DNA from: a phage | Direction: 5' to 3' (one strand) | Sequence record: PZ151149.1 | Length of the DNA: 64,000 nt | Shown: piece by piece, positions 14,762-18,400 of the stretch | Position numbering within the stretch: the first letter of the stretch is position 1 | How the letters are laid out: each line of letters opens with the position of its first letter | Program-made: the position numbers and the translations under genes | Notes under the pieces: model-generated | Databases searched by the model: none | What the model was told of the DNA's origin: nothing | The model's input: the letters and a program-made list of their open reading frames with translations, nothing else

Positions 14762-15085
14762 TTATTGTTCTACAGTATAACCGTTGTTTTCAAGCCATGC
14801 AATAACAATCTTTTCGCCAATTTCATCGAGCATTTCATCAGCGCCATATTCTTTAATGAAAGTCGATGGATCATTATTGCTTACTACATGCTGAATAACA
14901 ACATGTTCAGGGATTGCATCTAACAGTTCATCATGGTCATACTCGTTAGCAATATCTTCAACGGTAACATTATTAGCCAGATCCACCTCGTCTAAAGTCA
15001 CCGTAACGCGTCGAGTTGGATATGATCCCTGTTCTACTTCAACCTGTGCACTTTCGCAAGTAACCTTCATATCAATCATAATCAA
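14762..15085 (-). CDS. hypothetical highly acidic protein
   Basis: 107 aa, strongly D/E-rich. Confidence 0.5.
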   Translation of the reverse strand: MIMIDMKVTCESAQVEVEQGSYPTRRVTVTLDEVDLANNVTVEDIANEYDHDELLDAIPEHVVIQHVVSNNDPSTFIKEYGADEMLDEIGEKIVIAWLENNGYTVEQ

Positions 15086-15093
15086 TTCCTCTG

Positions 15094-16086
15094 TTAGTAA
15101 TGGCTAAAACCTTCGGTTACATCTTCAACCACATAGTAACGATGACAGCGCATTTTAGCATTCGCATAATCTTTCGGGATACTTACAACGTGACGCGGAT
15201 CAACTTTGCATTTAATGATTCGGCCTCGTCCACCGCCATAGTGCGGAATGTAGTGTTTCGCTGCAACGTGGAGGCCATTAGAGCAAGTGCGATCATCATC
15301 TGGGTCCACGTCTTTACGTTTCATTTTAACCGTGCGCCCTGGGCTATTATCAAATGTATGCGTAAAGAAATCTTTATAATCAACATCAACACGTTTCCAT
15401 GCATAGAAACAACCATCTTCCCCGATCTCAATGTCGTTGTGCTCTAAGAAGTCAAACAGACGATCTACCGCCTTACGGCTAGGGTTTTTCTTGCACTTCT
15501 CAAAGAAGTTCAGATAGTGCGTATATGGCTTATTCTCTTTAATCGATTCCACAACTCGGCGAGTCAGATTATTATCAAGAACAATATTATGATAATACAC
15601 AATACCATTTTCGATACGGAAAGCGCCGTGATAATATACTTCAACCGCTTTCTTAATGTCAATCAGCGTAATAGCTTTGATGAAATCATTATGTTTAATC
15701 GCTTCCAGTGCTTCATTAAAGTTAACATGCGACGGATCAGCAGTATAAACAATGTCACCACATGTAATAGTAATAAACTTAGTTGAGGCTATTGCTACGA
15801 TTTTTGAGGAAGTAGTCACGGGCTTTTTTGCGCGTTCACCGCCTTTTCCTTTACTGGTTTTACGGCGTGCTTTACGTTTTTCTAGTGCCTTGCGACCTTC
15901 CGCTACTGCGTCTTTCTGAATCAGTAATACACGGGAGGCAGTGCGACGAGATACACCAAATGCTGCCGCAAGTGCTTCGCGGGTAGTAAACTTACCTTCG
16001 CCCCACTGTTTAGCCAGTTTGATTTGTTTTTCAGAATCCAGGCATTGAACGTTACGGTCAGAGACGGTGATTTTTGCTTTAGTCAT
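15094..16086 (-). CDS. rIIB: rIIB protein
   Basis: Blocks QKAV.RLFDFL, DIEI.EDG.FYAWK, HTFDNSPG, DDD.TCS.GLHV, VHPR.VVSIP.DYNDAKMR match remembered T4 rIIB; start taken at second ATG (16086) with GAGGA SD. Confidence 0.85.
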   Translation of the reverse strand: MTKAKITVSDRNVQCLDSEKQIKLAKQWGEGKFTTREALAAAFGVSRRTASRVLLIQKDAVAEGRKALEKRKARRKTSKGKGGERAKKPVTTSSKIVAIASTKFITITCGDIVYTADPSHVNFNEALEAIKHNDFIKAITLIDIKKAVEVYYHGAFRIENGIVYYHNIVLDNNLTRRVVESIKENKPYTHYLNFFEKCKKNPSRKAVDRLFDFLEHNDIEIGEDGCFYAWKRVDVDYKDFFTHTFDNSPGRTVKMKRKDVDPDDDRTCSNGLHVAAKHYIPHYGGGRGRIIKCKVDPRHVVSIPKDYANAKMRCHRYYVVEDVTEGFSHY

Positions 16087-16148
16087 AGTATTCATTCCTC
16101 TATTAGTTGGGCGACTATCGCCGCCCGATTCACATCATTATACCAGAA

Positions 16149-16280
16149 TTATTTTGCTTCTACAACCTTGCGGATTGTGCGGTCTGATACATTATAGATT
16201 CGTGCCAGTTCGCCTTTAGTCAAGCCGCGAGCGTATTGTTTACGGATGGTTTCTTTCTGGATAGCGGTCAGTTTAGTCAT
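16149..16280 (-). CDS. small helix-turn-helix-like protein (43 aa), paralog of the rIIB N-terminus
   Basis: Not in ORF track (under 60 aa); AGAGGTGA SD; MTKLTAIQKETIRKQYARGLTKGELARIYNVSDRTIRKVVEAK resembles rIIB residues ~20-60. Confidence 0.5.
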   Translation of the reverse strand: MTKLTAIQKETIRKQYARGLTKGELARIYNVSDRTIRKVVEAK

Positions 16281-16291
16281 AATATCACCTC

Positions 16292-18400
16292 TTAAAATTT
16301 AACATTCTTAACCAGTTTCATAAAGTCTTGTGCGCGTTTGTCGTTATGCAGAATACGATACCAGTTATCTACAATATCATACAGTAACGGGCTATTCTCT
16401 TTAAACTTCGCACAAACTGCTTTAATTCGTTCGTTTGCTGCCGTGAATTTTTCATCACAGATCTTTTTAGTTTCTTCGTCCATAATCCAACGAGTACGAA
16501 GGAGTAACTTGGAAACCTCTTTATTATAATGACGACCGTACAGTCTGTCAATAAATTCTGGAACACAGCGTTCTAGTTCATCGTCATGAAACAACATAGT
16601 GATCACACCCAGATATTCGCCATACCCCAGATGATTGGTCTTAACCTTCTTAGCCAGACCAGCCAGCTTACCGCGAACAAATTCTAGCGCACATTCCAAT
16701 TGTTCGTCAACGAGATATTTTTGTGTCTCGTTACGGGTAATAATATACTTTGTTACCCCGAAGTAGTCAAGCGCCGTGTGTAATGTATTTTCACTATGGA
16801 TCGATTTACGACTACGGCTTTCGAATGCATCACCTACGCGGAACATGTGCAAGCCTGATAACTCGCGAATCTCTGCCGCTTTCATGTGATGGCTGGTTTT
16901 ATGCCAACTGTCACCAATCTTTTCCATGATATACACGTTAGGCAGCTTAGGAGTCGCTTCACGTTGTGTACGCTCGGTCTTCTCCGGTTTAACTGCTTTA
17001 GCACGCAGATCATCGGCCTCAGACACTTTAATCACGGTCATTTCAGAATCATCATAATACTGTTTGATGTACTCGAAAGTCTCCATATGTTTTTCGTTGC
17101 GCTGACGGAACACAAGTACCTTTTTATTGATTCCGTATTCCTGGACCATGCCGTTAAGAGTCAGTGCACGCAGTTTCGGTTTATCGGTATCATCAATTAC
17201 ACACAGAATATCTTCTTTATGCATCCATACAAAATGCGTAATGTTGTATTGACTGCTAACGAAAGCAGGGCGCAATTTACTGATTGTGTGACGAGTACGA
17301 CACAGAGTATACACCTGACCTTCTACGTCATTAGGCGAATCTTTACCCGCATTCACAAACTTATTATAGATTGCTACCGGATCATCCCATTGTCCGATCT
17401 TACCCATCTTGCTAATAATATTGCGTTGAGTCGATGAATACTCGCTCATAAATTGCGCAAGTTTACGCTCTGTTTTAATGTTGGCGATCTTTTCTTTAAC
17501 CTTTTCCAACATCATTTCATTGATTTCTGCAATGCGTTTTTCGATGTTCGCTTTAGTCTCAATTGACAAGTGAACTTCTTCACGCGATGGCATCAGGTCC
17601 AGATCACCCAACTCAAAATTAATGTAAATGGTCTGGCGCTGGCGGTTTACAGCTTCTAACCATGTTCCGCGAACATATTCATACGGGATCGGATACTGGA
17701 TCTTACCCATGATTGCATATACTACATAGGAATCGTTATCACGCCCATTACAAACATAATAATTATCAAAGCTAGGGAAATAATTAATTTCGATTGCATT
17801 GATATTAGGTTTGTGTTCCCCAAAATGACGCAGTACAAATTGCGCTTCTCGATGCCATGTCTGAATGTCTTTTTCTTTCACCGGAATAGTGATTTTCAGA
17901 CCATTGTCTTCATAGGTCGGTTCGTCGAAAATCTGCACCATTTTCGGCATAGAGTTTTGCACGAATGCAGTAAATCCATAAGCGCGACCATTGTAATAGT
18001 TTACGATTGTAAAGGTGTCGGTATAGCTATAAGCAGACTTCGCACCTAAACCAAAAGATCCGATATAGTCATTAGTCTGGTCTTTTGTTGATTCAAAGTA
18101 AACCGTAAACAGTTGTTCTAATTCTTTCTTAGACGGAATACCCGTACCATAATCACGCACAGAAAAATACGGTTCGATTGCAGTCGGTAAATGAATATCA
18201 AACGGACGGTCTAAGGTTCCGGCTTCTTTGTGAGTGTCGGTAGCATTGCACGAATACTCACGGACGCAAGCACGCTCACAATATTGATAGGTATTCTTAG
18301 AAAGCACCATAAAAGCCTTGCTACTTGCTTTCAGTGAAAAATCAACCGCACCGCTCAGATCACTACCAAATACTTCTTCATTATCGATATGCATTTTCAT
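16292..18400 (-). CDS. rIIA: rIIA protein
   Basis: 702 aa (T4 rIIA 725); N-terminal GHKL-type ATPase motif VRDYGTGIP; lies directly upstream of rIIB as in T4. Confidence 0.85.
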   Translation of the reverse strand: MKMHIDNEEVFGSDLSGAVDFSLKASSKAFMVLSKNTYQYCERACVREYSCNATDTHKEAGTLDRPFDIHLPTAIEPYFSVRDYGTGIPSKKELEQLFTVYFESTKDQTNDYIGSFGLGAKSAYSYTDTFTIVNYYNGRAYGFTAFVQNSMPKMVQIFDEPTYEDNGLKITIPVKEKDIQTWHREAQFVLRHFGEHKPNINAIEINYFPSFDNYYVCNGRDNDSYVVYAIMGKIQYPIPYEYVRGTWLEAVNRQRQTIYINFELGDLDLMPSREEVHLSIETKANIEKRIAEINEMMLEKVKEKIANIKTERKLAQFMSEYSSTQRNIISKMGKIGQWDDPVAIYNKFVNAGKDSPNDVEGQVYTLCRTRHTISKLRPAFVSSQYNITHFVWMHKEDILCVIDDTDKPKLRALTLNGMVQEYGINKKVLVFRQRNEKHMETFEYIKQYYDDSEMTVIKVSEADDLRAKAVKPEKTERTQREATPKLPNVYIMEKIGDSWHKTSHHMKAAEIRELSGLHMFRVGDAFESRSRKSIHSENTLHTALDYFGVTKYIITRNETQKYLVDEQLECALEFVRGKLAGLAKKVKTNHLGYGEYLGVITMLFHDDELERCVPEFIDRLYGRHYNKEVSKLLLRTRWIMDEETKKICDEKFTAANERIKAVCAKFKENSPLLYDIVDNWYRILHNDKRAQDFMKLVKNVKF

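Follow-up and report, generated by a model that had tools for sequence, protein, structure and literature searches.

The rIIA and rIIB genes are among the oldest genes of molecular genetics; Iyer et al., 2021 (PMC7824862) count rIIB among the specific transcription factors, both rII products counter RexAB, and RIIB triggers a bacterial CARD-gasdermin defence (bioRxiv 10.1101/2023.05.28.542683). The closest described system to the element considered here is the N-terminus of rIIB itself (PF26926 Phage_T4_rIIB, phrog_609; residues 6-45 of T2/T4 rIIB), a three-helix helix-turn-helix (HTH). We analyzed the rII locus of a T4-type phage (sequence record PZ151149.1) in a window that is the whole stretch of 64,000 nucleotides (nt), where a separate open reading frame (ORF) of 43 amino acids (aa), predicted to form the same three-helix HTH, lies between rIIA and rIIB.

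The rIIB N-terminus and this small ORF have in common the motif L(T/D)xxQKxxIxxxYxxGxTKxxLAxxxxVSxRTIxxV (the small ORF is identical to T2 rIIB at 16/38 positions), a start at the initiator Met and a genomic position directly after rIIA. Unlike the rIIB N-terminus, however, the small ORF lacks the linker and the C-terminal domain and is a separate cistron in another frame, with an in-frame stop between the two; unlike canonical rIIB, it co-exists with a complete rIIB that has a divergent HTH of its own. The sequence-only reading had noted the small ORF as absent from the ORF track; it is already on record as the hypothetical protein RB49p274 (NP_891845.1) and belongs without difference to phrog_15481, a family that carries no assigned function. 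Additional copies of the module occur in multi-HTH rIIBs (P0010 of metagenomic contig L009, P0078 of Aeromonas phage phiAS5, and P0199), where the same module has been copied in the rII locus; these keep their copies fused in one polypeptide, whereas Krischvirus has one copy as a separate gene. Outside the rII locus, Hin, the gamma-delta resolvase (HTH_7), IstA of IS21 and the CENP-B N-terminal domain have a fold like that of the small ORF, which, compared with the serine recombinases and IstA, has no catalytic or dimerisation domain and is accompanied by no recombination-site evidence. The DNA-binding domain of Hin (a 47-residue chain in 1ijw) shows that such a module can bind DNA alone.

The architecture described below is a new variant of the known rII locus. 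We regard it as probable that the small ORF is an early gene for a lone HTH of the rIIB type, which would have arisen by duplication or fission of the rIIB 5' module in an ancestor of the Krischvirus clade.

The 43-aa gene between rIIA and rIIB

The source phage is a Krischvirus (RB49-like): megablast of positions 15000-16400 retrieved 59 phage records at 95-99% identity, every one of them a Krischvirus/RB49-like coliphage. The rIIA gene, the small ORF and rIIB all lie on the minus strand, in the following layout:

16292-18400, minus strand: rIIA, 702 aa (phrog_612, E 2e-188), annotated RIIA in Krischvirus records
16285-16291, minus strand: small-ORF Shine-Dalgarno (SD) sequence GAGGTGA, read from the sequence, 4 nt before the ATG
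16149-16280, minus strand: small ORF, 43 aa, predicted free-standing three-helix HTH (RB49p274, phrog_15481)
16137-16145, minus strand: extended -10-like element TGGTATAAT, putative internal rIIB promoter, 3 nt past the small-ORF stop
16109-16126, minus strand: G+C-rich hairpin GGGCGGC-GAUA-GUCGCCC, 7 bp, in the spacer upstream of the rIIB SD, in minimum-free-energy (MFE) and centroid folds
16097-16100, minus strand: rIIB SD core GAGG, 10 nt before the ATG at 16086 and 1 nt before the ATG at 16095
15094-16095, minus strand: rIIB ORF (phrog_609, E 2e-106), likely start 16086 (330 aa)
15919-16041, minus strand: HTH module attached to rIIB, residues 16-56 of the 330-aa rIIB, placed by the hhalign columns

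The small-ORF protein has the sequence MTKLTAIQKETIRKQYARGLTKGELARIYNVSDRTIRKVVEAK. Its SD abuts the rIIA stop codon (16292-16294), and its flanks measure 11 nt to rIIA and 53 nt to the rIIB ORF. For rIIB, the likely start is the second ATG (16086), because the SD spacing is 10 nt there and 1 nt at the first ATG; the annotation of RB49 and GEC-3S agrees. We ruled out that read-through or frameshifting joins the small ORF to rIIB, because their frames differ and a TGA stands 14 codons upstream of the rIIB start. The small ORF is also not a rIIB protein, since it stops after 43 aa and lacks the C-terminal rIIB domain; ending where it does, and in another frame than rIIB, it is the homologue of one rIIB module only.

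An ORF of 43 aa with a good SD at this junction had been proposed from the letters alone, and comparison with relatives bears this out. The small ORF matches phrog_15481 over its full length (residues 1-43 against profile positions 1-43 of 43, E 3e-34), and tblastn located it in 59/59 Krischvirus records, 54 of them identical and all at 98-100% identity, and nowhere else in the phage collection; one of these records, W115, labels it a DNA-binding HTH domain protein. Word-indexed searches of sequence and alignment across 5.8 billion proteins returned six clusters only, all of 43-44 aa and 69-98% identical. Through these clusters, and through homologues of rIIB, we found metagenomic contigs of more distant relatives (L009, L010/L011, L012, L013/L014 and L015), in which the order rIIA, small ORF, rIIB is always kept. 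The small ORF measures 43-45 aa in these five divergent relatives (L009, L010, L012, L013/L014, L015); their rIIBs share only 54-62% identity with the window rIIB, and the spacing between rIIA and the small ORF is tight in them, at -4 to 16 nt. It is absent from contig L016, whose rIIB is 53% identical to that of the window, and from the rIIA-rIIB junction of T2, Mosigvirus, Pseudotevenvirus, Tulanevirus, Kanagawavirus and Felixounavirus. In other T4-type genera rIIB starts 0-83 nt past rIIA with no ORF between them, so that the small ORF occupies the position of their rIIB start site.

Between the relatives, synonymous differences are saturated (pS 0.53-1.0) and nonsynonymous differences are few (pN 0.07-0.28; omega ~0.03-0.3 where computable), and protein identity is held at 69-86% despite this saturation. 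The core of helix 2, turn and helix 3, TKGE(L/I)AR(I/V)YNVSDRTIR, is nearly invariant. Judged by these sequence comparisons, the small ORF is a protein-coding gene under strong purifying selection, limited to the Krischvirus clade and near relatives. Literature searches identified no paper that discusses the small ORF or the rIIB HTH in any detail, and none that links phrog_15481 to rIIB.

Fold and likeness to rIIB N-termini

The best Pfam match of the small ORF is CENP-B_N at 26.0 bits, above the cutoff of 21.2; Sigma70_r4 (21.1 bits, cutoff 24.1) and HTH_7 (18.3, cutoff 23.8) fall below their cutoffs, as do HTH_28 and Mor, and the likeness to CENP-B_N, HTH_7 and Sigma70_r4 is one of class-level membership only. 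AlphaFold2 run on the family alignment predicts a three-helix bundle with helices at 6-18, 22-29 and 33-41 and a predicted local distance difference test score (pLDDT) of 90.6. The Foldseek neighbours of this model are the HTHs of IstA, gamma-delta resolvase, Hin and CENP-B (TMq 0.74-0.83), with a root-mean-square deviation of 1.1-1.6 A to IstA, Hin and CENP-B. Similarly, the AlphaFold2 model of rIIB (mean pLDDT 85) has an N-terminal HTH, a long helix, a basic disordered linker and the C-terminal rIIB domain, and its HTH unit (helices 18-29, 36-42 and 47-56, pLDDT ~97) has the topology of the small ORF. PF26926 is recorded on rIIB homologues. A search of Protein Data Bank (PDB) sequences with rIIB and with the small-ORF profile returned nothing significant, and when the whole rIIB model was compared with PDB structures by Foldseek, no meaningful match in fold emerged. 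Pfam, AlphaFold2 and Foldseek are thus in agreement with what the sequence-only reading had suggested, and the models support the view that the small ORF and the rIIB N-terminus are both three-helix HTHs of the resolvase/transposase/sigma-region-4-like class. The rIIB linker (residues ~78-92, RKARRKTSKGKGGERAKKP) is rich in Lys and Arg and disordered, with pLDDT <50.

Profile search of the two segments yielded a significant match between the small ORF and the rIIB module. When the small-ORF alignment was compared by hhalign with 35 diverse full-length rIIBs, the probability was 97.4% (E 9e-12), and small-ORF residues 4-42 aligned with window rIIB residues 16-56 in the 330-aa numbering. A hidden Markov model (HMM) of the first 60 residues of 122 rIIBs from outside the Krischvirus clade (hereafter rIIB-N HMM) scores the small ORFs at 44-57 bits and that of the window at 49-50, with alignments running from residue 1-3 to residue 42-45 of both; the next best curated family for the small ORF, in Pfam or PHROG, reaches at most 26 bits. 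Leaving the closest clade out of the model still gave the small ORFs 41-57 bits, and when the window was scanned blind with the rIIB-N HMM (all 1024 ORF segments in six frames), only the small ORF (E 8e-15) and rIIB (E 3e-9) were recovered. In the opposite search, phrog_15481 was the top match among 38,880 PHROGs for 2/10 rIIB N-termini tested (the first 55 residues of P0091 and P0020), and for rIIB P0099 it ranked third. Moreover, the small ORF and P0091, a Miller/Pseudotevenvirus-like rIIB, are identical at 19/37 positions (P~2e-8), and the shared start of the small ORF and canonical rIIB, M-x-K-L-T/V-K-I-L...Q-K, is registered on the initiator Met. At the level of profiles, then, the small ORF and the rIIB N-terminal module are homologous, far beyond what chance would give.

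The module attached to rIIB in the Krischvirus clade is the divergent one of the two. Its score on the rIIB-N HMM is 26-30 bits, whereas the 5th percentile for rIIB N-termini stands at 36.7, and its recognition helix reads SRRTASRVL, compared with SDRTIRKVV, invariant in the clade, in the small ORF. An HMM of the clade's own attached modules gives the small ORFs 21-29 bits. P0091 is about equally close to the attached module and the small ORF (scores 81 and 86), and the two copies are distant from one another (40). On these scores, the small ORF is far closer to the canonical N-terminus of rIIBs from other genera than to the divergent module of its own rIIB.

The number of HTH modules per rIIB varies: among 120 rIIBs, 112 have one, five have two and three have three. 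The L009 rIIB (P0010, 459 aa) has three tandem modules (~1-45, 56-111 and 144-189) and is still preceded by the small ORF, and P0199 (775 aa) carries two HTH modules together with the rIIB C-domain. The stop codon of the small ORF and the start of rIIB overlap in L012 (TGATG), which leaves the two one base shift from fusion. Because the module number ranges from one to three and L012 comes this near to a fusion, copying of the module, and probably its splitting, is a recurrent theme.

Side observations bear on individual contigs. With the three-module rIIB of L009 (L009:4685-6064, ena:ERZ27260015:k141_60519) and the 43-aa HTH gene before it, there are four module copies in one rII locus. In L012 (L012:57-898, logan:SRR8048112_22734) the small ORF overlaps the gene upstream (ATGA), and spacer, promoter and hairpin are missing before rIIB; that upstream gene encodes only 236 aa, apparently an rIIA N-terminus joined to an rIIA C-terminus, which looks like an internal deletion or an assembly chimera. 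The rIIB_1/2/3 split of Klebsiella phage CPRSB was considered as a parallel case and rejected, the assembly being ridden with frameshifts; the annotation of this record (L018, OM971649.1:25-5459) breaks rIIA into five pieces and rIIB into three, which looks like the result of assembly frameshifts.

The spacer and the neighbouring ORFs

The spacer between the small ORF and rIIB holds a putative promoter and a hairpin. A promoter is annotated in GEC-3S where TGGTATAAT lies, and counterpart spacers have tggtataat (L009) or TTGACA-17-TACAAT/TATTAT (L010, L015). A simple promoter scan of the window did not call the TGGTATAAT site, which it missed because the -35 is poor. The hairpin at 16109-16126, noted beforehand as separating the two genes, forms a stem of 7 bp in the MFE fold and in the centroid fold alike. 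Hairpins of 7-9 bp, also G+C-rich, recur in the spacers of L009, L010, L013 and L015, with an unrelated sequence in each lineage; in L016, which has no small ORF, a hairpin directly follows rIIA (L016:3915-3960), and in L010 and L015 the -10 hexamer of the near-consensus promoter sits within the hairpin loop. The hairpin is genuine and of a kind that recurs at the rIIA-rIIB junction. Its G+C-rich stem would suit an intrinsic terminator, a reading we rejected for want of a U-run: none follows the hairpin of the window or those of the relatives, the scan found 0 terminator-like sites, and Rfam has no family in the window spacer. An element that defines or stabilizes an RNA end is more likely.

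An identical 9-nt stretch, ATGACTAAA (Met-Thr-Lys), opens the small ORF (16272-16280) and the likely rIIB (16086-16095), each preceded by an AGAGG-type SD; as the relatives do not have this repeat, it is probably due to chance or local gene conversion. Downstream of rIIB are small ORFs and then the topoisomerase gene 52. The ORF directly 3' of rIIB (14762-15085, minus strand) encodes 107 aa of acidic character, matches phrog_14049 (no assigned function) at E 2.5e-52, has no Pfam match and is kept in Krischvirus (RB49p272).

Origin and function of the small gene

Several results weigh against a derivation of the small ORF from rIIB. The sequence-only reading had called it clearly paralogous to rIIB residues ~20-60; homology over these columns stands at the profile level (the hhalign match above), and it is the word "clearly" that fails. 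A BLASTP comparison of the small ORF with its own rIIB returned nothing relevant, and the small-ORF profile gives the window rIIB 0.8 bits. Smith-Waterman alignment with the first 70 rIIB residues scored 40 with 11/29 identities, a score equalled in 2/2000 shuffles (P~3e-3), so that a direct comparison of the sequences shows only marginal likeness to the neighbouring rIIB. At the nucleotide level a duplication has left no trace, and the evidence fits either direction and either mode of the event (partial 5' duplication or fission of a two-module rIIB). The literature searched yielded no expression, DNA-binding or phenotype data for the small ORF. In addition, the HTH class to which it belongs (KLTxxQ...VSxxTIxxV) is very widespread. 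An HMMER search of 1.84 billion representative proteins with the small-ORF profile gave 335 matches at E<=1e-3; among the best 149 of the 335, which were characterised, only P0199 carries the rIIB C-terminal domain. The single modules with the highest scores, 40-47.5 bits, are HTHs from the C-termini of HNH endonucleases, small HTHs that stand alone and members of multi-HTH arrays, and the best rIIB reaches 33.5 bits, below the best library modules (47.5). Similarly, rIIB-N HMMs built from single clades score the small ORF at 20-33 bits, no higher than the best library proteins. Since such clade-specific models do not favour the small ORF, part of its 49-bit score must be class consensus, and since the best 149 of the 335 matches are almost all non-rIIB, the library search cannot serve to show specific paralogy.

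A rival origin is an independently acquired, generic HTH, for example a small mobile regulator or the domesticated DNA-binding domain of a homing endonuclease once present between rIIA and rIIB, whose likeness to the rIIB N-terminus would reflect only the common KLTxxQ...VSxxTIxxV class. T4-type phages often have homing endonuclease genes between genes, and the closest library modules are C-terminal HTHs of HNH-type endonucleases (P0148, P0174, P0227, P0238) and stand-alone HTHs, at 40-47 bits compared with 33.5 for the best rIIB; PHROG matches of the small ORF to DNA-binding, Mor-like and HNH families beat that to phrog_609, and the clade-specific rIIB HMMs do not separate it from the best library matches. 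However, those matches are the extreme tail of 1.84 billion proteins, chosen for their likeness to the small ORF, whereas the rIIB set is small and unselected, and of the 148 library proteins that are not rIIBs, just one is not outscored by the small ORFs on the broad rIIB-N HMM. With 49 bits, the small ORF scores about twice as high on the rIIB consensus as on any curated family; the reciprocal top PHROG matches point to rIIB; the alignment begins at the initiator Met of both proteins; of ~280 intergenic sites that it might have occupied, the small ORF is at the very one where rIIB starts; and it is just in the clade with the extra copy that the attached rIIB module is divergent to an unusual degree. 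Pfam and PHROG scans of the small ORF returned no nuclease family as a whole-protein architecture, and its flanks of only 11 and 53 nt leave no room for endonuclease debris. We therefore regard a generic origin as unlikely, though still to be taken seriously. A mainly autoregulatory role, in which the peptide would bind the predicted promoter overlapping its own 3' end and set rIIB expression instead of working jointly with the rIIA and rIIB proteins, appears improbable to us: the small ORF is a lone HTH, TGGTATAAT lies 3 nt past its stop with similar hexamers in L009, L010 and L015, and the classing of rIIB itself with the specific transcription factors (Iyer et al., 2021; PMC7824862) would fit, yet a 43-aa monomeric HTH has no dimerisation element, L012 keeps the small ORF with neither spacer nor promoter before rIIB, and the promoter is a consensus match that the simple scan did not call. 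That the small ORF is non-functional, a chance frame or a decaying 5' fragment of rIIB, would accord with its very short length, its annotation as hypothetical only and a product that has gone unreported, and we consider it very improbable; its SD is strong, its fold is predicted with confidence, its length and position are kept across relatives with rIIBs only 54-62% identical, and synonymous sites are saturated at 69-86% protein identity with a near-invariant helix 2-helix 3 core. The selection data, as read from the alignments, already contradict this reading.

Specific descent from the rIIB module thus appears to us the probable origin of the small ORF, if well short of certain. Duplication from rIIB is the best inference from the sequences and falls short of demonstration, because the HTH class is widespread and the most similar single modules are non-rIIB. 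Under this descent from rIIB, the 5' end of rIIB would have undergone a partial tandem duplication in the ancestor of the Krischvirus clade, or a two-module rIIB would have been split. The upstream copy would then have become an independent cistron with the canonical recognition helix, while the copy attached to rIIB diverged and may have changed its role. The small ORF would be made early, co-transcribed with rIIA and probably translationally coupled to it; rIIB may in addition be expressed alone, because the spacer has a predicted promoter and a stable hairpin. By analogy with the HTHs of Hin, resolvase and IstA, the free module would bind in trans the target of the rIIB N-terminus of other phages, most likely DNA, and the rII system of Krischvirus would have three parts, namely rIIA, an HTH peptide and rIIB.

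A further-reaching proposal, which we put forward as speculative and on balance doubtful, is that the free HTH peptide carries the ancestral nucleic-acid binding of rIIB in trans and is required for, modulates or acts as a decoy in an arms race linked to rII, that is, escape from RexAB-type exclusion and from RIIB-sensing defences such as CARD-gasdermin. If so, the function of the rIIB HTH would be genetically separable from that of the C-terminal domain for the first time.

The immediate impact of these results is modest, since they are comparative genomics of an already annotated hypothetical protein. For the rII locus, they describe the rIIB N-terminal HTH as a module of variable copy number, with one to three copies in cis and, in one clade, a separate conserved gene. 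Because the module varies in copy number and is strongly conserved as a separate gene, the HTH probably has a selectable activity of its own, and the free module of Krischvirus may serve as a natural split construct for asking what the rIIB HTH binds and whether it acts in trans.

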